24,651 nucleotides of DNA from Kiritimatiellia bacterium (lineage in GTDB: Bacteria > Verrucomicrobiota > Kiritimatiellia > RFP12 > UBA1067): contig JBMNFY010000018.1 in the NCBI GenBank assembly GCA_050949565.1, positions 1-24,651 of the forward strand, given 5' to 3'. Shown in pieces: positions 1-16,007 of this stretch. Below the pieces are notes generated by a model. It was given only the letters and a program-made list of their open reading frames with translations, had not been told where the DNA came from and did not search any database. Position numbers and translations under genes: made by a program. The stretch's first letter is position 1. Every line of letters starts with the position of its first letter.

Positions 1-1450
1 TTAGTGGAACAGCCTCAATGGCATAATCAAGACGATGAGCGTAAGCATTCTGTGAAATAATGTCGCCATCGAATGCTGTCGGGATTCTTGACGGTGTCAT
101 TTGGCTCACGATATTCCATGCAACTTTTCGTGCGTCACCGAAATAGGCGTCGCGACCGTCCGCTCTCTCAAGGTGGTTGAGATCAATCGAGGCGCTTTGC
201 AGAACCCCGGTGACATTTCTGAACCAGCGTTCTGACATTACAACCAAACGGCTCTTATCAGCCCCGTCACGTGTCACGCCAGCAAGAGAGAGAAAATGAT
301 TGGTCAGTGAATTAATATTGAATTTGCTAGCCGGAGCGAACGCATGGGTACCCAGATTGGGGATTGCGGTGATACTTTCTGTTTCCAGCGGATGTATGTT
401 CGGATTCGGATCATACGAGAGCGAAGAGAACGGCATGCGGTCGGGATTGGATTCCAGATCGGGGATTTGAGACTTGAGATCTTCGATCTTTTCATGATCG
501 ACGTGGGCGAACCAGTTGGTGACGTCGGCCTGGCTGAAACAGACACGCGGCAACTTTTGCGTGGTGGGGCCGGTGAGGAAGTGGTTGGCGTCGAGAAAAC
601 CGGAAACGTCGAAGACCGCGAAGGCGACGCGGGCGGCGGTGTCGCGCCAGGGCTCTCCTGGGACTTCGATGGAATGCCACGATGAGCGGAAAGGAGAGGT
701 TGAGGAGGTGAGGTCAATGCCGTTCGTGAGCGCGGGCGGAATCAGTGCACGGACTTCGGGTGTGAGCAGGTTGACGGTCCATTGATCACGCATTTCAGAG
801 GTGGTGAATTCGGGGGTGGGGGGAGAGACTGGAGGGGCGCTTTTTTGTATCGGCGGTGAGGCGAGAACGCCGGGGGCTTGGAATTCGACGGAATTAGGCC
901 CTGTAGGATTTTCGATGTTGTCCCCCTCCCATTTGTCTGAAAACCAGCGGCCGACCGGCGCGAGGCGCTGGGGGACAGGCGAGCCGGAATCAACGGAAAA
1001 GGGTGCGTCGGCGAAATTGGCGGTGCAGAAAGCGTCCTCGACCGTGCGCATGGCGAGGTGCAGCGCTTCGTTGAGCTGGTTGCGCGCCGCCAGGCGGTGC
1101 GTTGCGGCGGCGGTGGCCTGCTGCTGCAGGCGGGTGGCGGCCAGGAAGGTGACGGCCATGACGCTGAGCACGGTCAGGATGCCGAGCGTGACCAGCAGCG
1201 TCGCGCCGCGCCGTGCGTCAGCGCGACGCGGATATGGGAGGGACGAGCGTCCGCTCGTCCGCGGGCAAGCGACGCTTGCCCCTCCCAGTGCTCCGCGAGC
1301 CGACTTGTGAGGGGGAGAGACGAGCGTCCGCCCGTCTGCGGGCAAGCGACGCTTACCCCTCCCGGCGCCCTGCGGGCCGGCTTGTGAGGGAGAGGGACGA
1401 GCGTCCCGGTGCTTCGCGGGCCGGCTTGTTAGCTTACCAGAGCAGATCAT
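1..1450 (-). CDS. PilX/GspK-like minor pseudopilin, truncated by the window edge at its 3' end (absent from the ORF track)
   Basis: Hand translation gives ...RRG|ATLLVTLGILTVLSVMAVTFLAATR..., a K/X-type helix lacking Glu5, with Gly-1 at 1205-1207. The frame reads ...LDYAIEAVPL at base 1. An in-frame ATG at 1450 has GGAGG 8 nt upstream. It is the last of the H-I-J-K series. Confidence 0.8.
   Translation of the reverse strand, partial: MICSGKLTSRPAKHRDARPSPSQAGPQGAGRGKRRLPADGRTLVSPPHKSARGALGGASVACPRTSGRSSLPYPRRADARRGATLLVTLGILTVLSVMAVTFLAATRLQQQATAAATHRLAARNQLNEALHLAMRTVEDAFCTANFADAPFSVDSGSPVPQRLAPVGRWFSDKWEGDNIENPTGPNSVEFQAPGVLASPPIQKSAPPVSPPTPEFTTSEMRDQWTVNLLTPEVRALIPPALTNGIDLTSSTSPFRSSWHSIEVPGEPWRDTAARVAFAVFDVSGFLDANHFLTGPTTQKLPRVCFSQADVTNWFAHVDHEKIEDLKSQIPDLESNPDRMPFSSLSYDPNPNIHPLETESITAIPNLGTHAFAPASKFNINSLTNHFLSLAGVTRDGADKSRLVVMSERWFRNVTGVLQSASIDLNHLERADGRDAYFGDARKVAWNIVSQMTPSRIPTAFDGDIISQNAYAHRLDYAIEAVPL
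1236..1286. repeat. REP element, family 1 (three-way hairpin), copy inside the PilX-like leader
   Basis: GGGAG/CTCCC outer stem enclosing GGACGAGC-gtcc-GCTCGTCC and GGGCAAGC-gac-GCTTGCCC. Degenerate copies follow at ~1311-1363 and ~1389-1408. Confidence 0.85.
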
Positions 1451-1832
1451 TCAAGAATCCTCCGAATGGCCATTCGTCTGCATTCGCGACTAAACCGCGA
1501 CGAACAGGATTGTTCCGCACGTACTCCCATTTCTCGTGATAGTTTTCACCTCGTCGTAATTGCGTATCCCAGCAATCTCGTTGGAATATCGGCGATTTTT
1601 GCGTTTTATTTCGCGAGGGAGGGACGAGCGTCCGCTCGTCCGCGGGCAAGCGGACGCTTGCCCCTCCCAGTGCTCCGCGAGCCGACTTGTGAGGGGGAGA
1701 GACGAGCGTCCGCCCGTCTGCGGGCAAGCGACGCTTACCCCTCCCGGCGCCCTGCGGGCCGGCTTGTGAGGGAGAGGGACGAGCGTCCCGGTGCTTCGCG
1801 GGCCGGCTTGTTAGCTTACCAGAGCAGATCAT
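1434..1832 (-). pseudogene. Chimeric ORF created by the duplication: PilX-leader start fused to the RAYT C-terminal fragment
   Basis: The N-terminus equals the 1450 leader (MICSGKL...) and the C-terminus is identical to the RAYT end (...YVRNNPVRRGLV...LLW). It lacks the HUH motif. Confidence 0.7.
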
Positions 1833-2373
1833 TCAAGAATCCTCCGAATGGCCATTCGTCTGCATTCGCGACTAAACCGCGACGAACAGGATTGTTCCGC
1901 ACGTACTCCCATTTCTCGTGATAGTTTTCACCTCGTCGTAATTGCGTATCCCAGCAATCTCGTTGGAATATCGGCGATTTTTGCGTTTTATTTCGCGAGG
2001 GAGGGACGAGCGTCCGCTCGTCCGCGGGCAAGCGGACGCTTGCCCCTCCCAGCGCTCCGCGAACCGCACGTGTGACTAGGGATTTCCAATACCGCACCCA
2101 TTTGGCCACATTCTCGGCATCCGGTGATGCGGGCGCGCAGAAAAGGTGGATATGATCCGGCATCAGTACGTACGCACCTACCGTGTGTGATGTCGCCGAT
2201 GCCCATGCATCGACAAGAACGCGGTGCGTGAACGGAGTCGCGAATGTGTTTGCGAGGCGATCCGCCGCGCAAACTGTCACAAAAAGAATCACCGGCGTGT
2301 TGAAACGTGTCACGTTCGGAAGATGCGCTGGATGGCTGCGGTTGGCATTGACTCTGTCGTGGTCGTTCACCAT
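1816..2373 (-). CDS. REP-associated tyrosine transposase (RAYT, Y1 HUH / IS200-IS605 superfamily)
   Basis: Motifs FVTVC, YVLMPDHIHLF (HUH) and YVRNNPVRRGLV..W, flanked by REPs. ATG 2373 is preferred over 2697 because the longer start overlaps the upstream gene and reads through a REP. Confidence 0.9.
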   Translation of the reverse strand: MVNDHDRVNANRSHPAHLPNVTRFNTPVILFVTVCAADRLANTFATPFTHRVLVDAWASATSHTVGAYVLMPDHIHLFCAPASPDAENVAKWVRYWKSLVTRAVRGALGGASVRLPADERTLVPPSRNKTQKSPIFQRDCWDTQLRRGENYHEKWEYVRNNPVRRGLVANADEWPFGGFLNDLLW

Positions 2374-2522
2374 GGTGTCCTCATGCGCTGCTGTTGGGTT
2401 CTCGGTGCTCCGCGAGCCGGCTTGTGAGATGGGAGGGACGAGCGTCTGCTCGTCCGCGGGCAAGCGACGCTTGCCCCTCCCGGTGCTTTGCGAGTCGGTT
2501 CTAACGTTCTGGCGATATTCAT
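2367..2522 (-). CDS. 51-aa uORF, probable original 5' end of the PilX-like gene
   Basis: ATG 2522 overlaps the upstream stop (ATGA). It reads the REP as GGASVACPRTSRRSSLP, the same frame as in the PilX leader, and its TGA overlaps the RAYT start (ATGGTGA). Confidence 0.55.
   Translation of the reverse strand: MNIARTLEPTRKAPGGASVACPRTSRRSSLPSHKPARGAPRTQQQRMRTPW
2431..2481. repeat. REP family 1 copy upstream of RAYT
   Basis: 51-bp direct copy of 1236-1286 with one mismatch. Confidence 0.85.
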
Positions 2523-3730
2523 GGCAGACGCGAGCCTCCGGCTTGCGGAAGGGTGATGCGGCGGGAAATGAAGGTGCCCAAGTAACTGCTCTTGAGTACG
2601 TCGGCGGGTGAGGAATCCTTCTCGAGTTTCCAATACGCGGCCCAGTCCTGTTCGTCAAACAAACGAAATGCAACGTCGATTTGATCGGGCAGCACATCGG
2701 TAGTCAGACGGTCATAGGTGGGGGGGGAGGTCAACTTCATATTCCCGTCGTCGATGAACACCCATTCGTCGCTGTTTTCAATCATGTGCGGAAACCCTGG
2801 ATCTTCCTTCCGGACGAAACCTTCCGGGATCGTTGCGTTCAGCGATGGCAGTACGCGCTCCGCCAATAGCGTGTATTGCCATTTTACATCTGATGATTTT
2901 GTGGGATCTTGCAGGGCTTCAATTATGTCGTCATGAGTCCCTGCATTTCGGATTGAATCCAACAACTCATGCAGGAGGGTGCCCAGAGGCTCTGGATCGT
3001 TAAAATCGTTATACAGCGGAATGACGTGGCGAAAGAGGGCGTTGAGGTAGTACGTGTAGAAAACCGCATCGAGCGAAAAACGAGTGTCAGTTGCGCCGGC
3101 GGTGTCGGGGTCTGGCACACGCGAAGAACTTCGCCGCGCAAAAGCCAGCAACACCACCACGTCATTCAGCGTAGCGTTAATGGGCGGCGTCTCAAGGATG
3201 AAGCTCGGGTATTCTGGCGCATTGGCAGTGGAATTATTCGGGACGCTATTATCCGCCACCGCTTGGTAGAGATCATCCGCGATGAGGTCGGTGATCGCGA
3301 GGGCGGCAGTCTGCTCTTTTTTCTGGCTGCGCGAGGCGGACCACATCTCGGTGGCGCTGTTCAGGACGGTCATCAGGATGCCGAGGATCACGACGAAGAG
3401 CGAGAGGGCTGCCACCAACTCGATGAGGGTGAAGGCGGGGGAAGAAGTTCTAAAGTGCGGGAGTTCTAAAGTCCTCAAGTTGGCATGCCTCTGTTGTTGT
3501 CTCACACGAAGGCACAAAGGACACGAAGGTTTTTTGGGGAAAGTAGAGAAATTTTGGAGTGCGGCGGCAAGCGGTATTCCGCGCGACGCCGCTTTGTGAG
3601 GGCACACCGGAAAGCGGTGCCGCACTGCGTTTGTCACCGCACTCCACATGATGCGTCGAGTGTCGAGTGTTGAACGTTGCACGTTGAGCGTTGAGAGTTG
3701 AGCGTTGAAGAAGAGGCGGAGGGCGTTCAT
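2519..3730 (-). CDS. PilW/GspJ-like minor pseudopilin with a 99-aa repeat-derived leader
   Basis: SPA|FTLIELVAALSLFVVILGIL methylation motif with F+1 at 3433. ATG 3730 overlaps the upstream stop (ATGA). Confidence 0.85.
   Translation of the reverse strand: MNALRLFFNAQLSTLNVQRSTLDTRRIMWSAVTNAVRHRFPVCPHKAASRGIPLAAALQNFSTFPKKPSCPLCLRVRQQQRHANLRTLELPHFRTSSPAFTLIELVAALSLFVVILGILMTVLNSATEMWSASRSQKKEQTAALAITDLIADDLYQAVADNSVPNNSTANAPEYPSFILETPPINATLNDVVVLLAFARRSSSRVPDPDTAGATDTRFSLDAVFYTYYLNALFRHVIPLYNDFNDPEPLGTLLHELLDSIRNAGTHDDIIEALQDPTKSSDVKWQYTLLAERVLPSLNATIPEGFVRKEDPGFPHMIENSDEWVFIDDGNMKLTSPPTYDRLTTDVLPDQIDVAFRLFDEQDWAAYWKLEKDSSPADVLKSSYLGTFISRRITLPQAGGSRLP
3555..3646. repeat. Inverted REP doublet, family 2, inside a prepilin leader
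   Basis: TGGAGTGCGG...CGCCGCTTT faces AAAGCGGTG...CCGCACTCCA as imperfect inverted arms. Confidence 0.7.
3655..3710. repeat. Degenerate heptamer array (GTTGAGC-like x8) in a prepilin leader
   Basis: gtcgagt gtcgagt gttgaac gttgcac gttgagc gttgaga gttgagc gttgaag. Confidence 0.75.
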
Positions 3731-4305
3731 GGCAGGCCTCCGGGGTTGGTGAGGGTGGTGCGGAACAGACGTTGGTCGCTGGAGTAGGTAAGGCCGTCTG
3801 GATGGATGACGAGCGTGATATGGAGGGCGGTGAAGGGGCCGGGACTAGGAGGATTCAAGAAATTGCCCGTCAGGCTGTATAGCGGGTTCCAGTCCGTCAG
3901 GGAAAGGTTGTCTTTGTCGAATGTGGCGGCAAAAGAATTGGGCTCCGTGAAGCGCAGGAGGATCTTGGGGCTGGCGCTCATGTTGGCGATTGGTGGGAAG
4001 GGGATGTCGAATTTGTTCTGGCGTGCCTGTTCCCAGAGGTATTCCCACGTGCCAGACACGACGCCGTTCGTCCGCGCTTCTTCAACAAAGCGGGCGTTGT
4101 AGTCGCGCAAGGTTTCGAAGATCGCGTCGGCCATCAAGGCACAACGCTGGTCGTATTCGGTCTCTTTGGCGGTTTGCAGGCCGAGACGGCCGAGGCCGAA
4201 AATGGCCAGTAGGCCGAGACCGATGGCCAGCATGGCTAGGGCGGTCTCGATCAGGGTGAAACCCTTCTGGCGATTTTCAAGGACAAAAGAGAGGAGGTCC
4301 ATCAT
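3727..4305 (-). CDS. PilV/GspI-like minor pseudopilin
   Basis: QKG|FTLIETALAMLAIGLGLLAIFGL with a short normal leader. ATGA overlaps at both ends. Confidence 0.85.
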   Translation of the reverse strand: MMDLLSFVLENRQKGFTLIETALAMLAIGLGLLAIFGLGRLGLQTAKETEYDQRCALMADAIFETLRDYNARFVEEARTNGVVSGTWEYLWEQARQNKFDIPFPPIANMSASPKILLRFTEPNSFAATFDKDNLSLTDWNPLYSLTGNFLNPPSPGPFTALHITLVIHPDGLTYSSDQRLFRTTLTNPGGLP

Positions 4306-5135
4306 CTCGGGTCTCCTAAAACGGTGACAGTGCCGGTGGCGGGGTCGATGCGGAGGAGGCGGACAAGCGGTGCGGGGGTTGCCGACTCGGGATCAGGGAA
4401 GGACTGGGCGGTATGAAGAGCAATTGTGTGGTAAGGGTAATCCGACGGGGTGATCCCGTCGTCGATCATGACGCTGCCGTCGGGACGGAAGATCAGCAGC
4501 GAGGGCGTGTGCTCACCAGAATCAGGTTTTTCGCGCCTGCTCAGGCGGACATGGCCGGAGAGCCGCTGAAACGGTGTGGCGGGCTCCAGGATGAGCGGGT
4601 TTGCAATATCGCCGAACTCTGTGCTTTGCGATGGCAGGAACATCTTATTGTCCACATTTTGCACCAGATCCCTTAAAGCCGTCTCATCAACGGGCGGGAC
4701 CGCGTTCGTACAGATGAAGGACTGAAAGCCCGTGGTAGCAGACGTTACGACTGCAGGCCGGTTGGTGCTGCCGTAGCTGAAGGCGACGTAGGCGTGGCGG
4801 GTGACGGCGAGCGTGCGGGCCTGCTGCAGTCCGGCCTCGACGACGCGCGTGGCGCCGGTGAGGGCGTGCGCCGTGCCCCATGAGCCGTAGGCGCCGACGA
4901 GGATCGCCAGCCCGATGCCGATGACGGTCAGCACGGCAAGGAGTTCGAAGAGGGTGAAGCCCTTATTGCGACCACGTAGTGGACGCAATGGGGAGAGTAA
5001 AAGGGAATGGCGGCCACCCAGTGGTCGCAATGGGGAGAGTAAAAGGGCGGTTTTTTTAACGCAGAGACGCAGAGACGCAGAGCGTTGCGGCGCCGCGTGC
5101 CGAAGGTCGCTTGTCGCGAGTCGGGCGTTCATCAT
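4302..5135 (-). CDS. FimT/GspH-like minor pseudopilin with a 59-aa leader
   Basis: NKG|FTLFELLAVL, ARTLAV, IFRPDGS and C-terminal RIDPATG. Start moved to ATG 5135 because it overlaps the upstream stop (ATGA). Confidence 0.85.
   Translation of the reverse strand: MMNARLATSDLRHAAPQRSASLRLCVKKTALLLSPLRPLGGRHSLLLSPLRPLRGRNKGFTLFELLAVLTVIGIGLAILVGAYGSWGTAHALTGATRVVEAGLQQARTLAVTRHAYVAFSYGSTNRPAVVTSATTGFQSFICTNAVPPVDETALRDLVQNVDNKMFLPSQSTEFGDIANPLILEPATPFQRLSGHVRLSRREKPDSGEHTPSLLIFRPDGSVMIDDGITPSDYPYHTIALHTAQSFPDPESATPAPLVRLLRIDPATGTVTVLGDPR
4968..5047. repeat. Two 42-bp-period hairpin repeats in the leader (family 3), with a third copy at 6570-6608
   Basis: gcgaccac-gta-gtggacgcaatggggagagtaaaaggg occurs twice and encodes LLLSPLRPL.GR. 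The related ttgcgactactcagtggtcgcgatggggagggcaaaagg lies just before another cleavage site. Confidence 0.75.
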
Positions 5136-5941
5136 GGCCGCACCCCCGCGCTGTAGATGTAGTTGGTGTTGTTCGGACCGGCAGGGCCGCGTGAGAAGGC
5201 GAAGGCGATCTGATTGGAAACAGAGTGCGTGGCAATCACCGCGTCGGCTGAATTCTTGATGTCGTACGTGAAAACTCCTCGGGGATTCAGCCCCATGAAG
5301 AGGATGTAACTTTGATCCCACGGGTCGCGGTAGTCGACTCGGAGGCGGTCGCCCTCGTTTTGAAGGTCAAGGAATCGGATCCCCTTGGGGTTAAGCGGAT
5401 TGACCGGGTAGGGAGCGCTGGACGAATCGCCGACGGTGCTGAAAGCCTGATAGATGATGCGACCGTCGGTGTCGTCTTCGTCGAGTTTAAGGATTAGGTG
5501 GGAAATATCGTTGCCGTCTTGGTCTCTGGCTTTGAGATCATTCAGGAAGTCCGGATGGCCGTAGACGATGCAGGGTAACGTTTTTTCACCACTTTTTACC
5601 TCGGAGGGAGTGGCGTCGTTGAGCTCTACCGTACCTTGCGCGGCATTTTTGACTTGGAGCTGTCCGGGCCAGAAGCCGTATTCGGTTTTGTAGCGGATGG
5701 CGGCCTGGGCGAGCGCCGTGGCTTCGGCGGCGGCCTGGCGGCGCAGCGCGGCGGCGCGTACGGTCTTGATCGTGGGCAGGATGATGGCCAGCAGCACGGA
5801 GAGCACGCCGATCACCATGACGAGCTCGAGGACGGTAAAGGCGTTTTGATAGTGAATAGTGAATAACGAATAACGAATAGCTGTCGCGGGCGGGGATGCC
5901 CACGCTCCCGACTGGGGTCGACTATGGAGGGGGAAACGCAT
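5132..5941 (-). CDS. GspG-like type II secretion pseudopilin
   Basis: QNA|FTVLELVMVIGVLSVLLAIILP, YKTEYGFWP and a DPW motif. Confidence 0.85.
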   Translation of the reverse strand: MRFPLHSRPQSGAWASPPATAIRYSLFTIHYQNAFTVLELVMVIGVLSVLLAIILPTIKTVRAAALRRQAAAEATALAQAAIRYKTEYGFWPGQLQVKNAAQGTVELNDATPSEVKSGEKTLPCIVYGHPDFLNDLKARDQDGNDISHLILKLDEDDTDGRIIYQAFSTVGDSSSAPYPVNPLNPKGIRFLDLQNEGDRLRVDYRDPWDQSYILFMGLNPRGVFTYDIKNSADAVIATHSVSNQIAFAFSRGPAGPNNTNYIYSAGVRP

Positions 5942-5947
5942 GATGGT

Positions 5948-6658
5948 CTACTTGACGCTGAAGGAACTCCAACTGCCGAAGACCTCTTCCTCAAGCCGTT
6001 CGGGGTTTCCGGAGGAGTCGGTTTTGCGCGTGCCGGGAATGAGGGTCCAGACGGCCACGTTGGCGATGATGTTGGTGTTGAAGCCGGGTGCCTCGTTGTC
6101 GCGGATCTCGATCTGGCGGTCGCCGTTGGTGTCGAAGAGCACCTTGTAGGCGCGGGTGGTGTCGGTCGGATTGGGTTTGTTCGATTTGAACGGGTTCACC
6201 GGGGCGCGTGTGGCCGGAGAGTAGCGCGCGAATTCGATGAAGGGGATCATCTCCGGGTTGAAGGCCGCGATGTCATCTGCGGAAACGCCCGGGATCTGGT
6301 TGCCCTGCAGCAGCGCCGCGATGCCCTCGTCGATGATGAAGCCGCGGTCGTCGCCGGAAGGGAGCGGCTTTGCGGCGCGCGTGTCGTCCGGCCATGCGTG
6401 GTAGTGCGCGTGGTACTGTTTGAAGGCGGACTCGATGTTCTTGAGTTCGGTATAGGTGATGACGCGGCGGCTGAATTTTTGGGAGCGTTCGAGCGCACCG
6501 TAAAGCAGGGCCAGCAGTGAACTGATGATCCCGATGACGATGATCATCTCGATGAGCGTGAAGGCGCTATTGCGACTACTCAGTGGTCGCGATGGGGAGG
6601 GCAAAAGGAATCTCCAAATGCCGCATGTCTCTCGTCTCATGGCTCGTGTCGTTGGCAT
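5948..6658 (-). CDS. GspG-like type II secretion pseudopilin
   Basis: NSA|FTLIEMIIVIGIISSLLALL and FKQYHAHYHAWP. ATG 6658 lies 4 nt after the upstream stop. Confidence 0.85.
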   Translation of the reverse strand: MPTTRAMRRETCGIWRFLLPSPSRPLSSRNSAFTLIEMIIVIGIISSLLALLYGALERSQKFSRRVITYTELKNIESAFKQYHAHYHAWPDDTRAAKPLPSGDDRGFIIDEGIAALLQGNQIPGVSADDIAAFNPEMIPFIEFARYSPATRAPVNPFKSNKPNPTDTTRAYKVLFDTNGDRQIEIRDNEAPGFNTNIIANVAVWTLIPGTRKTDSSGNPERLEEEVFGSWSSFSVK

Positions 6659-6662
6659 GGTG

Positions 6663-7367
6663 TCACCGTTCAAAGTAGATGTCGTCAAGAGTAGGGTCAA
6701 GGTCACTCGCAGGGGAGCCGGTGGGGATTTGCTGGCTGTCGATCAGGGTACGGCGATTCGGCCCGCAGGAGAAGAGGGTGTATGCTTGGGCGTTGTCGGA
6801 AGTCAGGTAGATGTAGGGCATACCCCAGGGATCAACCGTGCTGACGGCTGTCGTGAGGAACGAGCGGAAGGTGATGTTGGTGGGTACTCCATCGTGCTCA
6901 AAGCGGACGTAACAGCCGGATGAATCGGTGTCGTTTGTCAGGATGGCGAGCGGGTAACGCGATGGGGTTGTCAAATCCCAGTCGACGGAATCGAGTGAAT
7001 CGACGGAATCGACGTCTGTTTTGATGCGGGCGTGGGGGTATTCGCCGAACTGGAGGTGCCAGCGGTTTAGTGTCTCGTGCCACTCTCCCAGGTCGGCCTG
7101 AGCGCGGCGGATATTGGCGGCTGCGTTCACATGCCGCGCGAGGCCGAGCACCAGAGCCATCAGAATGGAGACAATTCCCATGACAATCGCCAGTTCGATC
7201 ATAGTCATGCCGACCACGCCGCTGGCGCGGACGTGGCCGAGTGAGGATTTAGGATTTAGGAGTGAGGAGTTGACGGGACGGCGGGACAATAGAGAGGACA
7301 GGAACGCAGGTGCGCGGATGCGTCCGAGGTTTTTAGCGGATGATGTGCGTTTTGTCTGGCTCTCCAA
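6663..7367 (-). CDS. GspG-like major pseudopilin
   Basis: VVG|MTMIELAIVMGIV, FGEYP and DPWGMPYIY...YTLFSCGPN, a T2SS-G-type C-terminus. TTG start with AGGAG upstream; the start is uncertain. Confidence 0.85.
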   Translation of the reverse strand: MESQTKRTSSAKNLGRIRAPAFLSSLLSRRPVNSSLLNPKSSLGHVRASGVVGMTMIELAIVMGIVSILMALVLGLARHVNAAANIRRAQADLGEWHETLNRWHLQFGEYPHARIKTDVDSVDSLDSVDWDLTTPSRYPLAILTNDTDSSGCYVRFEHDGVPTNITFRSFLTTAVSTVDPWGMPYIYLTSDNAQAYTLFSCGPNRRTLIDSQQIPTGSPASDLDPTLDDIYFER

Positions 7368-7427
7368 CTTTATCCAACTCCTAAATCCTAACTCCTAAAT
7401 CCTAACTCCTAAATCCTAACTCCTAAA
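7241..7427. repeat. Inverted pair of TTAGGA(G/T) heptamer arrays (7241-7272 and 7376-7427)
   Basis: The left array reads gtgaggatttaggatttaggagtgaggag and the right reads (ctcctaaatcctaa) ~3.5 times, in reverse-complement orientation. Confidence 0.75.
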
Positions 7428-7439
7428 TTCTCCTTGACT

Positions 7440-9158
7440 CTACTCTTCCATCCGTCCGGCGACACGCAGGACCTCTTCCACGGATGTGCGGCCTTCGATC
7501 ACGCGCAGCCAGCCGTCTTGGCGCAGCGTGACCATGCCCTCTTTCATGGCAAGGTCCTTAATGATGTTGGCCGGTTCACGCGCGACGACCATCGCGCGCA
7601 GCGGGTCGCTCATGATCATGACTTCGTTGATCGCACTACGGCCGCGGTATCCGGTGAAACCGCAGGCCGGGCAGCCATGGCCGTGAATAAACTGGGCTTC
7701 ATCAATGCGATCGGGGTAGGTCATGGCGATTTCGTTGCGGATGGATTCGGGCACTTCGTAAGTGTCGTTGCAATTGCGGCAGACGCGGCGCACCAGACGC
7801 TGAGCGACGATACCCTCGACGCATGAGGAGATCAGGTAGGGCTCGACGCCCATGTCGGTCAAGCGCGTGACCGCGCTGGGCGCGTCGTTGGTGTGGAGCG
7901 TGCTGAGCACCAAGTGACCGGTGAGCGAGGAGCGTACCGCGATGTCGGCAGTTTCGGAGTCACGGATTTCGCCGACTAGGATCACGTCCGGGTCGTGACG
8001 CAGGATGGAACGCAGCACACTGGCGAAGGTGAGTCCGATCTTGCTATGGATCTGAACTTGACTGATGCCGGCCATCTGATATTCGACGGGGTCCTCCACG
8101 GTGATGATCTTGGTGCCGGTCTTGTTGAGGCGGGCCAGTAGCGCGTAGAGCGTGGTGGTTTTGCCGGAGCCGGTGGGGCCGGTCATCAGAATGACGCCAT
8201 GCGGAAGCTCGGTGAGCTTGGCGATCTTGGGAAGCTGGTAGGGCGAGAGGCCCAGGGTATCGAGGTCGATTTTGATGGTGCCGCGGCTAAGGATACGCAG
8301 ACAGCAGGTCTCACCCCAGCCGGTCGGCAGGACCGAGACACGCAGGTCATAATCGCTGTTGCCGCAGCGCACCTTGATGCGGCCGTCGTGCGGCTTGCGG
8401 TGCTCGGCGATATCCATGGCGGCCATGATTTTGACGGCGGAGCTGACCGCGTTGCGCAGTTTTTCTACGCCCTTGGGCAACGGGATCTCTTGCAGGATGC
8501 CGTCGATACGATAACGTAGGCGCAACGTGTTCTCAAATGGCTCAATGTGGATGTCGGTGCAGTCCATGCGGATCGCTTCAGCGATGATCAGGTTGATGAA
8601 GCGCACCATGCCGGTCTCTTGAGTCTGGACCGCAATATCGTCGTCCTCCTCATCCTGCGGCATCGCCTCGGCTTCGGCGATGAGTTGGTCGATGGTCTCC
8701 GCGCCGAGCCCGTAGAAGTGGGTCAGTGACATGGAGACGTCGCTTTCGGGGCAGAGCACAAACTCAATGCCGGCGTCGAGCACCATGCGCAGACCGTCGA
8801 CCGTGGTCAGGTTCGGCACGCGGCTCACGGCGAGCCGGAGGATGCCGTCCTGAAAGGTCAACGGCACGATACGGTGGCGCAGGGCAACCTTGGCGGTGAC
8901 CTTGTCGATGGCCTCCTGCTCGATCCTGAAATCGCCGATATTGTGGAACGGGATCCCGCTGGCCTCGGAAAAGGCTTTCAGCAGATCGGTTTCATTGACG
9001 ATGGCCTCCTGGACCAGCAACCGGTCGACACCTTGGAGCGTCACTGCGGCGCGACCTTGGACGTCGCCGAGCTTATCGAGCGTCAGCAGACCGCGATCGA
9101 CAAGCTTTTGAGTGACCTCTACGAGCAGTTCATCGGAGTAATAACGAATATCAGGCAT
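7440..9158 (-). CDS. pilB: PilB/GspE pilus assembly ATPase
   Basis: Walker A GPTGSGKTT, TVEDPVE, LRHDPDVILVGEIRD, STLHTND and CxxC...CxxC zinc motif. Confidence 0.95.
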   Translation of the reverse strand: MPDIRYYSDELLVEVTQKLVDRGLLTLDKLGDVQGRAAVTLQGVDRLLVQEAIVNETDLLKAFSEASGIPFHNIGDFRIEQEAIDKVTAKVALRHRIVPLTFQDGILRLAVSRVPNLTTVDGLRMVLDAGIEFVLCPESDVSMSLTHFYGLGAETIDQLIAEAEAMPQDEEDDDIAVQTQETGMVRFINLIIAEAIRMDCTDIHIEPFENTLRLRYRIDGILQEIPLPKGVEKLRNAVSSAVKIMAAMDIAEHRKPHDGRIKVRCGNSDYDLRVSVLPTGWGETCCLRILSRGTIKIDLDTLGLSPYQLPKIAKLTELPHGVILMTGPTGSGKTTTLYALLARLNKTGTKIITVEDPVEYQMAGISQVQIHSKIGLTFASVLRSILRHDPDVILVGEIRDSETADIAVRSSLTGHLVLSTLHTNDAPSAVTRLTDMGVEPYLISSCVEGIVAQRLVRRVCRNCNDTYEVPESIRNEIAMTYPDRIDEAQFIHGHGCPACGFTGYRGRSAINEVMIMSDPLRAMVVAREPANIIKDLAMKEGMVTLRQDGWLRVIEGRTSVEEVLRVAGRMEE

Positions 9159-11083: not shown

Positions 11084-11281
11084 GGTTTCAGGGTTTCGGG
11101 GTTTCGGGGTTTCGGGGTTTCGGGGTTTCAGGGTTTCGGGGTTTCAGGGTTTCGGGGTTTCGGGGTTTCGGGGTTTCAGGGTTTCGGGATTTCAGGGTTT
11201 CGGGGTTTCAGGGTTTCGGGGTTTCGGGGTTTCGGGGTTTCGGGGTTTCGGGGTTTCAGGGTTTCGGGGTTTCAGGGTTTC
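11084..11281. repeat. Octamer array GGTTTC(G/A)G x ~25
   Basis: Direct reading shows 198 bp with period 8. One extra unit at 11070 abuts the pilO-like ATG. Confidence 0.95.
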
Positions 11282-11662
11282 TTTGAATTTTACGCCGGGG
11301 AAGTCCGATGAACGAAGGTGCTTGATGAAAGAAGACAGGGCACTTCCAATGCGGATCGTCAGGGTGGACAGGGTATCAAAAGTTTGCTGGTCAATGTAGT
11401 GGGCATCCAGTGCGACATACAAATGAGACCTGACCTCACCGGCTGATCCTTTCGCCTGAGACAAAAATTGAACGAACTCCCTGTTTCCGTCACGCTCGAA
11501 ACCCTCTGCGATATTGGCCATGATCGACACGGAAGCACTGCGAAGCTGATCACGCAATTTAAAATCACGGACAAAATCAGGAGATTGAACCATGGCGTAA
11601 ATGGTCTTGGTCAATTCGCGGGCTAACTGCCACGCCTCAATCTCTTCAAAGCGCTTGATCAT
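11192..11662 (-). CDS. Four helix bundle protein (23S rRNA IVS / S23-like family)
   Basis: RFEEIEAWQLA, DFKLRDQLRSASVSIMANIAEGFER, EFVQFLSQAKGSAGEVRSHLYVALD. The tail runs into the octamer array. Alternative starts at 11725 and 11740 lie in the upstream array. Confidence 0.9.
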   Translation of the reverse strand: MIKRFEEIEAWQLARELTKTIYAMVQSPDFVRDFKLRDQLRSASVSIMANIAEGFERDGNREFVQFLSQAKGSAGEVRSHLYVALDAHYIDQQTFDTLSTLTIRIGSALSSFIKHLRSSDFPGVKFKETLKPRNPETPKPRNPETPKPRNPETPKP

Positions 11663-11693
11663 TCTGAAACTCGACTCATTTCGGGGTTGCCCC

Positions 11694-11740
11694 TTGAAAC
11701 CAGAAACCAGAAACCTTGAAACCATGAAACCAGAAACCAT
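11694..11740. repeat. GAAACCA-type array, inverted relative to 11084-11281
   Basis: cttgaaaccagaaaccagaaaccttgaaaccatgaaaccagaaaccat. Confidence 0.85.
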
Positions 11741-11747
11741 TTCTCCT

Positions 11748-13493
11748 CTAATAGGGTCGTCTCACTTCGATCTCGATCACAAATCGTCTGAAATTGGGGA
11801 GCTTCTCACCCTCCAGCTCGGGGATGCCGGTTGGGGCGAGCACCTGGTCGTCGCTGCGCAGGTCGACCCGCACGATGTCGGGCGAGGTCTTGAGACGTTC
11901 AATCATCTCTCTGACGCTTTTCAGGCTCGGGTTGGAGGTGTAACCCTCCGCGATGAAGACGGCCGAGAGCGGATCAACCAGGTCCTTGCGCGGCGGCGGT
12001 TCCTTTTTGTCGGCCGTCGTCGGCGCGGCCGCTGTTGGGCGCAGCGTGCGGAAGAGCGAGAACGGGTTGCGCACGGCCGCCTGGGGCGTGTCGGCCTTGG
12101 TGTTCAGATCCTGCTCTTTCGGATTGTAGATGTTCTCGTCGCAAAACATCGTGATCCAGTCTTCGGGATCCACCGTGTGTGCGACGAGCGTCAACACCTC
12201 TCGCGCGAGCGGTCCGTTGAGGGTGGCCTGCGTGATCGGCACCGCGTTGCTCAGGACGGCGGCTTGTTGGGCGCGCAGATCCTGGATGTGTTTGTCGATC
12301 TGCTCGCGCCGCCTGAGCTGTTCGCGTTCCGCATCCAGCAAGGCGCCGTCGCGCCGCAGCAAGTAGACGCCAGTGGCGGAGTAGAGTGCCATTGTAGCGG
12401 TCAGAAAGACGGCGGCCGCGATCCACCACGGTTTTTGCGCACGGAACACTACCTCGTCCTTGAGGTCCTGCGGCAACAGCGAGAGCGTCGTCGTGCCCCG
12501 TCCCATCGCGGTGATCGCGAGGCCGAAGGCCATGTCGTAAACACCCGCATACTGCTGATAACTCTTGTCGATGCTCGGCAGTTCCGAGACGTGTTGAACC
12601 GGCAGGAACAGTTTGGCGGCGAGATACTCTTTAAGTCCTTTGAGTTGGGCGCCGCCGCCGGTGATCACGATGCGCGCGACGGTGAATTTACGGTCTTGGA
12701 AGGTGCTGCGGTAAACGCCCATGCAGGCGTTGAACTGCGAGATCCATCGGTCGGCTGCGAGGCGCAGCGGCTCGCAGCAGGCGTCGTTTTCGCGCAGTCC
12801 ACAATCGACATGTTTGCGCACTTCGGCCTGCACGGCCGGTAGGCCGGTGGTTTGCGCCACTGCATCCGTAAAGAGCTTGCCGCCCGCGGCGAGGGAACGC
12901 GCGAAGAGCAACCCGCTGTTGAGGCCGATGGCGACTTCAGTCTGCGTGTGGCCGATGCTCACATAGCAGTATGGCTCTTCACGCTCGCCGGCGAATGTTT
13001 CCATCGCGTTGTAGAGCGCGACCGGTGCGGAGATCAGGTCTGCGGGACGCAGGCTGTTGCGTCGCGTCGCTTGGACAACCTCCTTGATTGAGGAGGGACG
13101 CGCCATCGACATGATGTAGCGCCGGACGCCGGCTTCGAAGGGCGTTTCAAACGCGAAGACATCATACGCCATGTCATCACCGGCCATCTCGCTGAATTGG
13201 GCGATGTCCATGGCGGCGACCTGTTCGGGCGTACGCGGGTCGTTGGGCATGATGCGCCCACTCTGAAAGACGGTTTGCGAGCCCGGCAGGGCGATCGCGC
13301 AGAACTGCTTTGCAACCCCGAGCTTGTGCACCCAGGTGGCGATCAGCTTGTGGGGGTCTTCCTCATCGTCCATCGGCAGCGCAAGGGTCTCCGCGCGCGT
13401 CACGACCGGGCGGCTGCCGCGCAGCCCCACCCAGACAGCCCGCACGGAGCGGGAACCGACGTCAAAGGCGATCATCTGTTTGATTCGAGACAT
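11748..13493 (-). CDS. pilM: PilM-PilN fusion protein
   Basis: Actin-like IAFDVGSRSVR, SIGHTQT and ITGGGAQLKGL, then LSLLP + TM helix + coiled coil + PilN-like C-terminus. Confidence 0.85.
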   Translation of the reverse strand: MSRIKQMIAFDVGSRSVRAVWVGLRGSRPVVTRAETLALPMDDEEDPHKLIATWVHKLGVAKQFCAIALPGSQTVFQSGRIMPNDPRTPEQVAAMDIAQFSEMAGDDMAYDVFAFETPFEAGVRRYIMSMARPSSIKEVVQATRRNSLRPADLISAPVALYNAMETFAGEREEPYCYVSIGHTQTEVAIGLNSGLLFARSLAAGGKLFTDAVAQTTGLPAVQAEVRKHVDCGLRENDACCEPLRLAADRWISQFNACMGVYRSTFQDRKFTVARIVITGGGAQLKGLKEYLAAKLFLPVQHVSELPSIDKSYQQYAGVYDMAFGLAITAMGRGTTTLSLLPQDLKDEVVFRAQKPWWIAAAVFLTATMALYSATGVYLLRRDGALLDAEREQLRRREQIDKHIQDLRAQQAAVLSNAVPITQATLNGPLAREVLTLVAHTVDPEDWITMFCDENIYNPKEQDLNTKADTPQAAVRNPFSLFRTLRPTAAAPTTADKKEPPPRKDLVDPLSAVFIAEGYTSNPSLKSVREMIERLKTSPDIVRVDLRSDDQVLAPTGIPELEGEKLPNFRRFVIEIEVRRPY

Positions 13494-13715: not shown

Positions 13716-16007
13716 TCAGGGGGTTGCCGGGGCTTTCAGGATGTCGGGAACCTGCGCTTCGGCCGGCACGTCGAGGCCGTAGCGCTCGAAGTCGTTCAGC
13801 GGGATCAGCTCCTCGCCGATGTCGCTGATGAGCGTTGCGGTGACGAAGATCAGGATATTGTTAATTTTTTTCTCATTTGTTTTTGTACCAAATAAATTGC
13901 CGATGAAGGGGAGTTTTGACAGCCACGGGATACCACTGTCTTTGTCCTTTGCGCTCGTGTCGACGAGCCCGCCCAATACGACGGTTTCGCCGCTGCGTAC
14001 GACGGCCTCGGTCTCGATATATTGTCGGGAAAGAATAGGAATTTCAATGGCAGGTTCATTTTCCACGCTGTCTGCGCTGTCAAGGCTGCTCAACCGGTAT
14101 CTCTTCCAATCTTTGATGGAACTGATTTCGGGACGGAGCACCATTGTGATCGTTGAGAGATCTGCGCCGACACTCGGCGTTACGACGAGCGAATAGCCAG
14201 TCTCCACGATCGTGGGTCGATCATAATCATAGGTGACGTTGTCGCGCGAGTCGTTGTTGTTGTAGCCTCCGCTGGTCATGATATCGGTCTCAACTTCTTC
14301 GAAGTAGGAGGTGTCCTCGCCTACGCGGAAACGCGCCTCGCGGTTGTTGAGCGTGGTCACGCGAGGCACGACAATCATACGGCTTTTCCCGGATTCTTCG
14401 AGCGCTTTAAGCGTTGTTTGAAGTGCAGTGTTGCCTAACAAATATTGGAAATAAGCCTCTCCTGTCGCCGTCGAACCCATCCGACTTCCGTTAAGGAAAG
14501 CAGTACCCTGCAATTTCTTTTCTTGCATGTCTTTGATTTGGCGTTCAATCGCAATAATCTCTTCAACAGTGGCGTCTGGATCATTTTGATTTCTTCGAAG
14601 CTCGTTGATTGCCGTGCTACCGTCGCTGAGCGTTGTGGTAACGGGACGCTGGAAAAGCCATTCGATGCCGAGTTCGCGCAGGTCGGTGACGGTCGTGGTG
14701 ACGAAGCGCGCCTCGATCAGCACTTGCAGCGGACGCAGGTCCATCGCCGCGATCAGTTCTTCCACCAAGGCTAGGTTGTCCAACGTATTCTTGACAATCA
14801 GCGCGTGTACCTTGTCGTCAAACATAAAATCCGCGCCATCGGGCTGCGGCACGAAACGGTCGATGGCTTCCAGCAGGCCGACCTTGGGCTCGGCGCCAGG
14901 CTTCTGCTCCTGCTGCTGGTTACTGGATCTGCTGCTGTTGCGTTCTTCGGGCCCCTTGAAAAGAGACTGTCCCTGCGCGGACTTGCCGAGTTCAGAGCCG
15001 ACCAGCCCTTTGCGCAGCCGGTAGACGCGGGTCTTCATAGGGGGGACGCCGACCGCGGGCGGCTCTTTTTGCGTGATCCAGATCAGGTTGCTATAGACCG
15101 AAAAGCTGATGTCGAGGTTCTTATCGAAGTACTCCAACATCTCGATCAACGGCGTGTTTTCAAAGCGAGCCGTGATCAGTTTGGTACTGACGATTTCGCT
15201 GTCGGCGATGTAGTTGATGTTGGTGGACTTTTTGATCTCGGCGATGATGGCGTTGACGTCGGCGTTTTCGAGGGTCAGGCTCACCGGCTGCTGCAACGCC
15301 TTCTGCATCTCGGTGAGCGGCGTGACGACTGCGTTGGTTTCGCCCATCACGTGTTGCTTCTGGCGGTAGCGTTGCGGCATGGCGGCGAAACCGAGGGCGT
15401 CGGCTGTGCCGAGGTCAACGGTGGCTTCGGCCCTCTTGTTGGCGGCCGTGAGCCGTTCCTCGGCCAGGCGCAGGTTGATGCGGCGCTGCAAGTCGGCGAG
15501 GCCGACCGCCTCGGGGTCCTTGCGCGTGATGTCGATGCAGGCGGAGATTGCCTCCTGCGTCTGGCCGGCCACAAAGAGCGCTTCGGCAGCGGCCACCGCC
15601 GGCGAGAGGTCGCGCGTCATGCGGGCGCGCAACTGGGCGAGACCCACGGCGTCTGGCCTTTCTTCGGCCAGGGCGTTGCAAGCGGTGAGTGCCTCTTGCC
15701 GTTGACCGTTCTCGAAGAGCCGTTCAATTTCCAGCACTTCGGGCGAAAGACGACGGGCCACACGGCTTTGCAGCTCTTGCAGGCCGGCATTGACCGCCGC
15801 GTTGGTCGAGGGCGCCACGCTGGCTACGATGAAAGAGCGCAGGTAACCCTGCTCGAACAGACGCTCGGCCTCGGCGACTTCAGGCTCTTTCTCGGTCGGC
15901 CCTTCTCCGTACCACGGGAGTTGCGAACTGGTGCAGCCGATAACGATGGCCAGCGATGAGGCCAGAAGGAGAGGAACGGCGGTTGTGGCGATGTTTTTCA
16001 TAAGCAT
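13716..16007 (-). CDS. Secretin (PilQ/GspD family), probable lipoprotein
   Basis: LAIVIG-C lipobox-like signal, QVLIEARFV...ELGIEW, PRVTTLNNREA, VRSGETVVLGGL and GIPWLSKLPFIGNLF. Confidence 0.92.
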   Translation of the reverse strand: MLMKNIATTAVPLLLASSLAIVIGCTSSQLPWYGEGPTEKEPEVAEAERLFEQGYLRSFIVASVAPSTNAAVNAGLQELQSRVARRLSPEVLEIERLFENGQRQEALTACNALAEERPDAVGLAQLRARMTRDLSPAVAAAEALFVAGQTQEAISACIDITRKDPEAVGLADLQRRINLRLAEERLTAANKRAEATVDLGTADALGFAAMPQRYRQKQHVMGETNAVVTPLTEMQKALQQPVSLTLENADVNAIIAEIKKSTNINYIADSEIVSTKLITARFENTPLIEMLEYFDKNLDISFSVYSNLIWITQKEPPAVGVPPMKTRVYRLRKGLVGSELGKSAQGQSLFKGPEERNSSRSSNQQQEQKPGAEPKVGLLEAIDRFVPQPDGADFMFDDKVHALIVKNTLDNLALVEELIAAMDLRPLQVLIEARFVTTTVTDLRELGIEWLFQRPVTTTLSDGSTAINELRRNQNDPDATVEEIIAIERQIKDMQEKKLQGTAFLNGSRMGSTATGEAYFQYLLGNTALQTTLKALEESGKSRMIVVPRVTTLNNREARFRVGEDTSYFEEVETDIMTSGGYNNNDSRDNVTYDYDRPTIVETGYSLVVTPSVGADLSTITMVLRPEISSIKDWKRYRLSSLDSADSVENEPAIEIPILSRQYIETEAVVRSGETVVLGGLVDTSAKDKDSGIPWLSKLPFIGNLFGTKTNEKKINNILIFVTATLISDIGEELIPLNDFERYGLDVPAEAQVPDILKAPATP

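Follow-up and report, generated by a model that had tools for sequence, protein, structure and literature searches.

Prepilin leaders as a probable safe harbour for dispersed repeats in a gspE-linked pseudopilin operon of a Kiritimatiellia bacterium

Why should consecutive pilin genes carry dispersed repeats in the place where a short leader peptide is expected? The question is raised by a window of 24,651 nucleotides, the whole stretch of DNA analysed here, from a contig of an uncultured Kiritimatiellia bacterium. Seven pilin-like genes (A to G) lie downstream of gspE on the minus strand, from position 7367 to 2 (Table 1), and nearly every start overlaps or abuts the preceding stop, the long start of A excepted. 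Judged from sequence, they form a pseudopilin operon that is linked to gspE and belongs to the type II secretion-like (type IV filament) kind. As in class III prepilins, a G/A↓F/M-T-L-I-E motif is followed by about 20 hydrophobic residues. The neighbourhood is also alike: a secretin gene, a PilM-like gene and the GspE ATPase gene adjoin the pilin-like genes, and the genome has one prepilin peptidase gene (A24).

Table 1. Features of the operon in the window (↓, cleavage site)
Feature	Position	Strand	Motif	First mature base	Start	Leader (aa)	Match or context
gspE-type secretion ATPase	7440..9158	-					first gene of the block; PF00437, E 1.8e-126
gspE-A spacer / possible A leader	7209..7439	-	G↓MTMIE	7208	TTG 7367 (furthest plausible)	53	candidate starts TTG 7367, TTG 7289, GTG 7217
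Pseudopilin A mature part, GspG-like	6663..7208	-					PF08334 27.4 bits; TIGR01710 43.9 bits, under 88.85 cut-off
B leader	6563..6658	-	A↓FTLIE	6562	ATG 6658	32	start 4 nt past A stop
Pseudopilin B mature part	5948..6562	-					PF07963 and TIGR02532 matches
C leader	5840..5941	-	A↓FTVLE	5839	ATG 5941	34	start 6 nt past B stop
Pseudopilin C mature part	5132..5839	-					orthologues 35-69% identity, six related genomes
D leader	4959..5135	-	G↓FTLFE	4958	ATG 5135	59	ATGA overlap with C stop
Pseudopilin D mature part, GspH-like / Verru_Chthon cassette protein D-like	4302..4958	-					TIGR02596 33.8 bits, TIGR01708 25 bits; both under cut-off
E leader, classical length, repeat-free	4261..4305	-	G↓FTLIE	4260	ATG 4305	15	ATGA overlap with D stop
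Pseudopilin E mature part, PilV/GspI-like	3727..4260	-					TIGR02523 28.5 bits, under cut-off
F leader	3434..3730	-	A↓FTLIE	3433	ATG 3730	99	ATGA overlap with E stop
Pseudopilin F mature part, GspJ-like / Verru_Chthon cassette protein C-like	2519..3433	-					TIGR02599 28.7 bits, under cut-off
51-codon ORF	2367..2522	-					ATGA overlap with F stop; terminal TGA overlaps transposase ATG
REP-associated tyrosine transposase-like gene	1816..2373	-					between F and G
382-bp tandem duplication, 2.2 copies	1236..2075	-					REP pair and transposase 3' end (TRF)
G N-terminal extension	1208..1450	-	RRG↓ATLLV	about 1207	ATG 1450	81-82	runs through REP pairs
gspK-like minor pseudopilin G	2..1207	-					off contig end; NF037980 17.3 bits, under cut-off; profile position 2 = residue 81

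In six of the seven genes, the frame extends 32 to 99 codons 5' of the G/A↓FTLIE motif. The initial annotation had assigned them leaders of 82, 99, 59, 34, 32 and 53 aa, and we recovered the same figures. The ATGA overlaps that it had used to pin the starts at 3730 and 5135 are real, and the E start at 4305 likewise overlaps the stop of its neighbour. Only the 53-aa start of A is unpinned, since its frame closes before reaching the gspE stop; alternative starts are TTG (27 codons) and GTG (3 codons). In gene C, ATG 5941 is the sole canonical start within the open frame, and orthologue alignments from six related genomes begin at query residues 24-33. The F start has GGAGG 8-12 nt 5' of its ATG. 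In B, D and F, in-frame TTGs (6604, 4988 and 3478) would give leaders of 14, 10 (MRPLRGRNKG↓) and 15 aa, so for the window alone short leaders are possible. Of the 6 window gaps, 5 are open in the pilin frame, against 3 and 0 in the other two frames.

The leader DNA of six of the seven genes contains REP hairpins or short arrays, as first noted. TRF detected 7-mer arrays at 7372-7428, 7239-7270, 5849-5881 and 3655-3709, an 8-mer array at 5059-5082, a 16-mer array at 3445-3481 and 77-nt REP pairs at 1236-1406. In the gspE-A spacer, the first array is built of TTAGGAG/TTAGGAT and the second is its inverted copy, while the C leader array is TATTCGT/TATTCAC. The B leader holds a degenerate REP hairpin (about 6572-6590), the D leader a pair of 42-nt REP units whose hairpins lie at about 5010-5028 and 4968-4986, and the F leader a palindromic dispersed element (about 3550-3650) plus CCTTCGTG repeats. 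Blastn found matches elsewhere in the genome for the region upstream of A (476) and for the leaders of D (231), G (197), F (153), C (25) and B (2), and 0 for that of E. Two mature-domain controls gave 0 matches each. The claim that mature domains are repeat-free holds for these controls but not for the mature part of A, where TRF found an in-frame tandem array of period 9 (6982-7014) that belongs to no dispersed family.

Tandem arrays of 6-10-mers make up 1.7% of the genome, and REP hairpins are also abundant. More than 90% of the leader-segment matches sit outside gene calls, as sorted with a crude caller. Arrays are carried by 374 of 1221 same-strand gaps genome-wide, but in just 26 of these 374 is the downstream frame open and coupled. 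The notion that repeats are equally common at all gene starts is in this respect half right. As to genome-wide enrichment, repeat-bearing in-frame 5' extensions occur in 6 of 24 pilin-like ORFs, whereas among the remaining genes the count is 127 of 3003 (Fisher p = 4.5e-4). Other pilin clusters in the same genome are mostly without repeats.

To extend the sample, we collected 133 different gaps, each 75 nt or longer and running from the previous stop to the mature pilin codon, in the window and 61 related loci. The loci are mutually related, some metagenome contigs are perhaps redundant or chimeric, and identical gaps alone were removed to arrive at these 133. A start was called coupled when it lay within -4 to +15 nt of the preceding stop. 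The pilin frame was open in 120 of the 133 gaps (64 and 18 in the two control frames), and a coupled start was present in 113 (7 and 0 in the control frames). These 113 gaps came from 45 sources, window included; 104 starts were ATG and 62 were exact 4-nt ATGA-type overlaps.

The corresponding leaders measure 25 to 272 aa, with a median of 46, and 106 of the 113 exceed 26 aa. In contrast, the passages of PMC4471445 that deal with class III leaders describe them as 6-26 aa long and Gly-ending, staying in the cytoplasm and cut on its side of the membrane. Leaders here are built of dispersed repeats, and 41 of 118 tabulated motif-bearing pilin ORFs have Ala immediately before the cut. Processing may be atypical, because Ala often replaces the Gly that the same passages of PMC4471445 call 'absolutely critical'.

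The leaders also turn over between related contigs, which share 74–94% gene-C protein identity and 76–95% DNA identity in aligned blocks. Gap lengths were 173, 131, 101 and 152 nt for D, 41, 152 and 56 nt for E, and 293, 368, 335 and 110 nt for F. Every length variant of these three leaders retained the coupled frame. Relative to the window, the D leader of L043 is shorter by precisely one 42-nt REP unit, and the 41-nt E gap of the window corresponds to a repeat-built gap of 152 nt in L040, L041 and L042. The C leader is identical in L040, L076 and L080. Upstream of A, outside the open frame, the array differs in length by 28 nt from that of L076.

Modules are shared among paralogues as well. 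Genes B, D and E of L027 carry near-identical leaders, and in L041 one composite leader stands on both D and E. Such sharing and the wholesale replacement of leaders fit the suggestion that the repeats act as recombination handles, but divergence between strains forms mosaic blocks whose breaks are not specific to leaders, and no exchange of entire pilin genes was observed. Six more distant loci (L024, L025, L026, L030, L033 and L034) have classical leaders of 5-16 aa, e.g. MKRKG↓, and keep the same operon. Compared across these loci, the short leader appears as the ancestral state.

The G locus offers an example of insertion. The transposase-like gene between F and G scores 79.6 bits with NF047646 (cut-off 80) and has a REP hairpin in frame within its own coding region; the REP that flanks it differs from the GCGACCAC hairpin family. 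The 51-codon ORF upstream of it crosses one REP. It probably represents the orphaned beginning of the G leader, as orthologues place the G ATG at the F-stop overlap. In these gspK-like orthologues the ATG lies at -4, and the N-terminal extensions are 9 to 79 aa long. In the window, the G ATG at 1450 precedes the stop codon of the duplicated transposase tail by 17 nt, and no canonical start is closer to the membrane helix. A single-copy form of the 382-bp segment is present in L060-L062, with a gap of 929 nt.

Frame conservation, coupling, repeat origin, leader turnover without a broken frame and short leaders in distant relatives all support one of the interpretations offered initially, namely that cleaved cytoplasmic leaders of translationally coupled genes are a safe harbour for repeats. 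We assign this a probability of about 0.68. Of the other ideas put forward with it, recombination handles find partial support, and frameshift switching is unsupported in consensus assemblies. The long leaders would be translated and cleaved, and their presence would reflect tolerance rather than function. Short arrays and REP hairpins normally accumulate in the intergenic DNA of this genome. Since the operon lacks intergenic DNA, the sole tolerated landing place would run from the coupled start to the cleavage site. Leader sequence and length would barely matter there, because a class III leader, as described in the literature, stays cytoplasmic and is removed by prepilin peptidase. Insertions, duplications and swaps of repeat modules would survive if they left the frame open, brought no new stop codon and placed acceptable residues beside the cut. 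The outcome would be translated, hypervariable, repeat-built leaders of 25 to 272 aa.

Parts of this picture resemble known systems. REPs are extragenic by definition. The units here share with the REP/RAYT system (REPINs) their palindromic form, size of 20-40 nt and high copy number (86 hairpins of the GCGACCAC family in the genome), as well as the REP-associated tyrosine transposase-like gene inside the operon; unlike REPs, they would be read through as protein. A parallel in this respect is offered by Rickettsia palindromic elements (RPEs). In the parts of PMC10969869 that count them, nearly half of 44 RPEs in R. conorii lie in frame inside ORFs, and the same holds for 11 of 12 homologues from three further species. 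As with these elements and MITEs, dispersed palindromes are found here within ORFs without breaking the frame, and they are presumably translated. However, RPEs reside in mature parts of unrelated enzymes, whereas the insertions here are confined to the removable leader of one gene class. They also comprise several unrelated families, including non-triplet tandem arrays, and stack to hundreds of codons.

It is worth stressing that pure tolerance leaves two observations unaccounted for: the mostly repeat-free state of the other pilin clusters and the fixed frame of the REP hairpin. The latter occurs in a single frame, encoding LRPLxGRN, in 49 of 49 leader copies. In 27 copies it ends exactly 9 nt before the mature codon; in another 6 the distance is 12 nt, and in 4 it is 15 nt. 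Genes B, D, E and F at least show this pattern, and so do many genomes. Another family, which encodes (N)FRTLELPNFRTS, likewise adjoins the cut site in several genes. These results, together with the modules shared by paralogues, would fit leaders that are functional and not neutral junk, a reading that we consider unlikely. The embedded hairpins and arrays might form mRNA structures that tune translational coupling, and hence the ratio of minor to major pseudopilins; be recognised by a site-specific insertion or recombination system, which would put a leader cassette where leader and mature part meet; or supply basic residues needed by the peptidase. Folding is strong in the D REP region (z -6.2) and in the gspE-A spacer (-95.4 kcal/mol, z -5.9). 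Additionally, a leader of roughly 46 aa on gene A is conserved as a peptide in four loci (L019, L022, L028 and L032), which hints at function. On the other hand, selection acting on residues -2 to -5 could equally fix the position of the hairpin, as could gene conversion among paralogues, which share FTLIE-coding DNA. Orthologues differ in leader content, and the relatives with short leaders manage the same operon. The structure seems not to be needed, because the hairpin of window B has decayed while its frame was kept. Genome-wide, no association of the hairpin with gene starts was found (15 co-directional vs 33 opposite).

Do the genes perhaps start further downstream, at internal TTG/GTG or non-canonical codons, with ordinary leaders, untranslated repeat spacers and open frames that are incidental? 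The internal starts of window genes A, B, D and F would permit this, and in 58 of the 113 coupled junctions a canonical start of some kind is found no more than 24 codons from the cleavage site. Shine-Dalgarno-like motifs precede 12 of 90 nearest internal starts, above the 5% of background positions, and the repeats are stop-poor, as the 64 open gaps in the first control frame indicate. However, the motifs precede 45 of 135 coupled starts, and the other 55 junctions have no ATG, GTG or TTG closer than 25 codons; window C has only its coupled ATG. Untranslated spacers would lack constraint, as the rarity of open, coupled frames among array-bearing gaps of the genome illustrates, yet length variants of the leaders are all in frame and the lone array outside a frame is the one shifted by 28 nt. 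Starts downstream of the repeats, envisaged initially as an outcome that would overturn the long leaders, are generally not what the coupled junctions indicate, and we regard them as very improbable.

The least probable reading is phase variation, in which slippage at non-triplet arrays would switch each pseudopilin on and off in the manner of contingency loci. As in those loci, such arrays (at least 2.6 copies, period 7, 8, 10 or 11, within or beside the leader ORF) are found in 5' portions of surface-structure genes, in 87 of 159 distinct gaps, and their length varies between strains upstream of A; but units are of 7-9 nt and few, mostly 2 to 6 copies, 76 of the 87 array-bearing gaps are in the ON (pilin) frame in consensus assemblies, and 0 of 88 pilin-to-pilin junctions on the metagenome contigs are out of frame. 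The 13 closed gaps of at least 45 nt comprise 8 gspE-A junctions, 3 from the repeat-poor L033/L034 lineage and 2 (C of L029 and of L038) that have their own upstream ATG.

With the safe harbour as the preferred reading, the prepilin leader looks like a place within genes where selfish DNA can be deposited and is tolerated.

On its minus strand the contig (C18, 24.6 kb, of a 4.66-Mb genome in 21 contigs) carries a type II secretion-like cluster. Its genes are listed in the table together with other features of the window.

Genes and other features of the window
Feature	Position	Strand	Match or description
Pilin-like gene	16067-16798	minus	
Secretin	13716-16007	minus	PF00263, E 8e-35
PilM-like gene	11748-13475	minus	PilM_2, E 1e-11
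Two genes without assignment	between 9334 and 11069	minus	
gspE	7440-9158	minus	PF00437, E 1.8e-126
A-F, six N-methylation-motif genes	7367-2519	minus	all six found by a regular-expression scan
REP-associated tyrosine transposase-like gene	1816-2373, in ORF 1816-2697	minus	NF047646
gspK-like gene G	2-1450	minus	
382-bp tandem duplication	1236-2075		spans a REP pair and the transposase 3′ end
300-bp unit	19345-20732		4.6 copies, 99% identity; composed of 7-, 8- and 9-mer sub-arrays CACAGATTA, CACGAAGG, CACGGAACA
Partial copy of the 300-bp unit	23748-23839		
IS3-type transposase gene	20895-22102		adjoins the 300-bp repeat region
IS110-type transposase gene	22259-23455		adjoins the 300-bp repeat region
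8-mer array	11084-11281		GGTTTCGG, 24.8 copies, between the PilM-like gene and the next gene
Small ORF	11192-11740		enters the GGTTTCGG array; C-terminus of PRNPETPK repeats
gspE-A spacer	7200-7440		single long stem, imperfectly paired; -95.4 kcal/mol, z -5.9
Mosaic regions	4550-4800 (D), 5200-5400 (C), 6850-7050 (A)		against related loci L073, L043, L040, L076

Genes A-F show the methylation motif G/FxxxE (the slash marks the cut) and the hydrophobic helix of type IV pilin-like proteins, and, lying in one cluster with genes for a GspE ATPase and a secretin, they have the operon context of a T2SS pseudopilin set. B, D and E exceeded the PF07963 cut-off of 21.2 bits (23.4-27.6 bits) and were also matched by TIGR02532; C and F stayed below it (16.8 and 17.2 bits), and gene A matches PF08334, not PF07963. 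None of the GspG/H/I/J/K-like proteins reached the score of a curated T2SS equivalog, all matches being under cut-off (43.9 bits against 88.85 for TIGR01710, 25 against 80 for TIGR01708 and 17.3 against 130 for NF037980). The set is T2SS-like in its putative working, though not filed as equivalogs. The genome has one A24 prepilin peptidase gene (PF01478, 73.7 bits, C17:637093-637443). Across the whole window no Rfam family reached its gathering score.

Counted from the upstream-most starts, the leaders of A to G (the residues before the prepilin cleavage site) measure 53, 32, 34, 59, 15, 99 and about 82 aa, which reproduces the lengths in the initial annotation. The ATGA overlaps reported there at 3730 and 5135 were confirmed; the start of E at 4305 overlaps its neighbour's stop too, and those of B and C fall 4 and 6 nt past the preceding stop. 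Leaders of 32-99 aa from such coupled starts are found in five of the six genes A-F, with 81-82 aa in G; the long start of A is not pinned. TRF and a hairpin scan recovered repeats in each long leader, namely 7-, 8- and 16-mer arrays and REP hairpins. Repeat-bearing leader segments gave between 2 and 476 blastn matches elsewhere in the genome, more than 90% of them outside predicted genes. The repeat-free leader of E and two mature-domain control segments gave none. As a correction to the initial annotation, an in-frame array of period 9 lies in mature A.

As far as the portion of PMC4471445 that we draw on describes it, a prepilin leader normally has 6-26 aa and ends in an invariant Gly. The long leaders of the window differ from such short, hydrophilic, Gly-ended class III signal peptides in length (32-99 aa), and several also in having Ala at position -1. 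This residue is Ala in B, C and F of the window and replaces the canonical Gly in 41 of 118 tabulated motif-bearing pilin ORFs, in the listed loci mostly in genes B and C.

The pilin-like gene upstream of the secretin has, in its open frame (16067-16906), a sole ATG 34 codons before G/FTLLE, and no dispersed repeat was detected in the resulting long leader. The stem of the gspE-A spacer forms between a TTAGGAG/TTAGGAT array and the inverted copy of that array, and the TTG that may be the start of gene A lies within it; related loci L023 and L038 are arranged alike, with TTG at -53 or -54. In four other loci (L019, L022, L028, L032) gene A has a leader of about 46 aa that is conserved as a peptide, MNxRRxIPxVAFxPN...SRHSTxDARHSG...G/MTMIE. 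It begins 1 nt past the gspE stop (with a 4-nt overlap in L022; the L028 junction was not scored), and it is not built from repeats and may be functional.

Since the window alone cannot decide whether the repeats are translated, we turned to its relatives. Six family-level genomes share the conserved operon (gspE, A-F, G), which was also found in 20 loci of a species-representative collection and in 41 metagenome contigs. These relatives are mostly recorded as Kiritimatiellia, some filed as Verrucomicrobia or Lentisphaeraceae, and come from digesters, bioreactors, rumen and similar sources. Each gap between the stop of the preceding gene and the first codon of the mature pilin was scored in all three frames for being open throughout and for a start codon at the previous stop. 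Removal of identical gaps left 133 of at least 75 nt. The pilin frame was open across 120 of these, compared with 64 and 18 for the two control frames, and had a start codon at the previous stop in 113, compared with 7 and 0. That true starts lie downstream of the repeats is contradicted by these frame statistics and fails as a general account. For B, D and F of the window individually, such starts are possible, as in-frame TTGs would yield short leaders of 14, 10 and 15 aa.

The coupled start codon is ATG in 104 of the 113 junctions, and the overlap is exactly 4 nt in 62. In 55 of the 113, the last 25 codons ahead of the cleavage site are free of ATG, GTG and TTG. Coupled-start leaders range from 25 to 272 aa (median 46), and 106 of the 113 exceed 26 aa; the longest are pure in-frame REP concatenates (272 aa in F of locus L029, 227 aa in E of L031 and 192 aa in E of L035). 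Shine-Dalgarno-like motifs stand ahead of 45 of 135 coupled starts, as against 12 of the 90 nearest internal starts and a background rate of 5% of positions. The gspK-like gene behaves alike: its ATG is at -4, and the protein is extended N-terminally by 9 to 79 aa. Leader charge was a weak test: it was net positive in 47 of 49 leaders but also in 43 and 33 of the control frames. With the query used, a gene C orthologue was not found in the same-genus genomes G001-G006 (best E 2.8e-6); as these are 56-89% complete in 220-860 contigs, this is not evidence of absence. Many anaerobic-digester runs contain this organism. Logan contigs from four runs are short and end at repeats, and neither length variants nor transcripts spanning the leaders were seen in them; those from RNA libraries, which may include DNA carry-over, cover only parts of mature B, C, D and F.

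Switching of individual pilins on and off, also considered initially, would require array-length variants that put a pilin ORF out of frame as at a contingency locus. Assembled sequences do not support it: 76 of 87 array-bearing gaps are in frame, and among metagenome pilin-to-pilin junctions 0 of 88 are out of frame.

Comparison across related contigs (whose gene C proteins are 74–94% identical to that of the window, and whose aligned DNA blocks are 76–95% identical) revealed the same genes with differing leaders, the coupled frame being kept in every variant. Gap lengths were 173, 131, 101 and 152 nt for gene D, 41, 152 and 56 nt for E, and 293, 368, 335 and 110 nt for F. The D leaders of the window and L043 differ by exactly one 42-nt REP unit. 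The array upstream of A, the sole one outside an open frame, differs by 28 nt between the window and L076. Six more distant loci have classical leaders of 5-16 aa and tiny gaps, which indicates that the long leaders are derived.

Strains can share identical leaders while diverging by 7-21% in places within the mature domains, and in the mismatch profile of L076 against the window gene B is identical throughout. In globular parts of pseudopilins D, C and A, mismatch-free blocks alternate with blocks of 7-21% divergence, whose differences are mostly at third codon positions. This mosaicism could stem from strain recombination or from chimeric metagenome contigs. We rejected the idea of leaders as conserved recombination handles, as the mosaic blocks reach far past the leaders and carry no leader-specific signal.

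In the genome as a whole, arrays of 6-10-mers make up 1.7% of the sequence. The concern that repeats are equally common at all gene starts is partly borne out, since arrays occur in 374 of the 1221 same-strand gaps that are 45 nt or longer; however, just 26 of the 374 have a downstream frame that is both open and coupled (5 and 10 in control frames). By our own codon-usage gene caller, which is crude and noisy at starts (3027 genes, 84% of the genome), repeats lie in the in-frame 5′ extension of 6 of 24 pilin-like ORFs as against 127 of 3003 other genes (p 4.5e-4). Most pilin-like ORFs elsewhere in the genome have ordinary ATG leaders of 5-19 aa. Two pilin frames outside the operon, at C4:37560 and C17:720725, also run through repeats; their clusters are otherwise clean. 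TTAGGAG arrays were also considered as oriented Shine-Dalgarno arrays and rejected, their orientation upstream of genes being balanced genome-wide (34/32 and 20/14).

Taken together, the frame statistics, the coupling and the turnover with kept frame best support the "safe harbour" reading of the initial annotation, to which we assign a probability of about 0.68; translation and cleavage of the leaders are part of what we infer. In a prepilin the leader is cytoplasmic and is cut on the cytoplasmic face, according to the part of PMC4471445 consulted. Being discarded as well, it would have little to constrain its length. With operon genes overlapping stop to start, it would be the only neutral landing place for abundant repeats, and only stop-free, in-frame events would survive.

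The safe harbour leaves several features unexplained: the Ala at -1, the position of one REP hairpin, a second repeat family, and leader modules shared as a whole by paralogues. The hairpin, GCGACCAC...GTGGTCGC, occurs 49 times in distinct leaders, always in the frame encoding LRPLxGRN. Among these are 27 copies, spread over genes B, D, E and F, whose end is exactly 9 nt away from the mature codon that follows. The second family, encoding FRTLELPNFRTS, also adjoins the cut site. The hairpin position may reflect targeted insertion, gene conversion via conserved FTLIE-coding DNA, or selection for basic residues near the cut.

The single frame and the fixed distance are the grounds for another, unlikely explanation, in which the boundary between leader and mature protein is a specific target, a REP hairpin or composite cassette being inserted precisely before the Gly/Ala(-1) codon, and the leaders are purposeful. 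Genome-wide, the family (86 hairpins at no more than one mismatch per arm) displays no association with gene starts. Of its copies, 83 lie outside the pilin block and 54 of those outside predicted genes, so that it is a REP in the usual sense of a high-copy, short, mainly extragenic palindrome. Were targeting true, a composite "leader cassette" would perhaps bring its own open frame and basic residues, long leaders could set translation-coupled pseudopilin stoichiometry, and leader/N-terminal modules could be exchanged between paralogues and strains. This would amount to mobile-element-driven remodelling of signal peptides. The single frame and fixed place of the hairpin hint at possible target specificity of REP mobilisation.

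Three similar ORFs on contig C20 of this genome (near 15488, 24598 and 35663) hold the same hairpin in frame at mid-length, read in the other open frame as GYCDHxVVA, and several neighbouring ORFs take from it their final residues ahead of the stop codon. These cases resemble in-frame insertion outside pilins of the type known from Rickettsia palindromic elements (RPEs). RPEs, inserted in frame into ORFs according to the part of PMC10969869 used here, are also the closest phenomenon to the repeat-built leaders: in both, dispersed repeats lie within ORFs and the frame is preserved among relatives. Unlike RPEs, the insertions in pseudopilin genes are confined to a removable leader, belong to several families, non-triplet arrays included, and pile up massively. 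A literature search, mostly at abstract level, yielded no publication about Kiritimatiellia repeats or about prepilin leaders that are long or built from repeats.

A REP-associated transposase-like gene sits within the operon and is joined to it by a chain of overlaps. The stop of F overlaps an ATG at 2522 that opens a 51-codon ORF running through a REP; the TGA of this ORF (2367-2369) overlaps the transposase ATG at 2373; and the transposase tail ends with a stop 17 nt downstream of the ATG of G at 1450. The transposase-like gene, whose ORF scored 79.6 bits with NF047646 (cut-off 80) and had no Pfam match, contains a REP hairpin in frame within its own coding region. The REP flanking it is of another family than the leader hairpin. 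Loci L060-L062 are without the 382-bp duplication, with a gap of 929 nt versus about 1311 nt in the window.

Programs for gene calling or pilin prediction that assume short leaders will place the starts of these genes wrongly or overlook the genes. Assemblies break at the repeats as well: genomes of the same genus are fragmented, and the query used did not recover the operon in them. If confirmed, the safe-harbour reading would mean that the length of a prepilin leader is essentially unconstrained, which fits its cytoplasmic location, and that prepilin peptidases accept a wider range of substrates. Selection on these leaders is seen solely in frame and stop codons. This Kiritimatiellia family appears to build leaders of 25-272 residues, often ending in Ala, from selfish repeats. 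The cleaved signal segment would serve as "intergenic space" within the gene for repeats in an operon that has no spacers, a clean case of selfish DNA.
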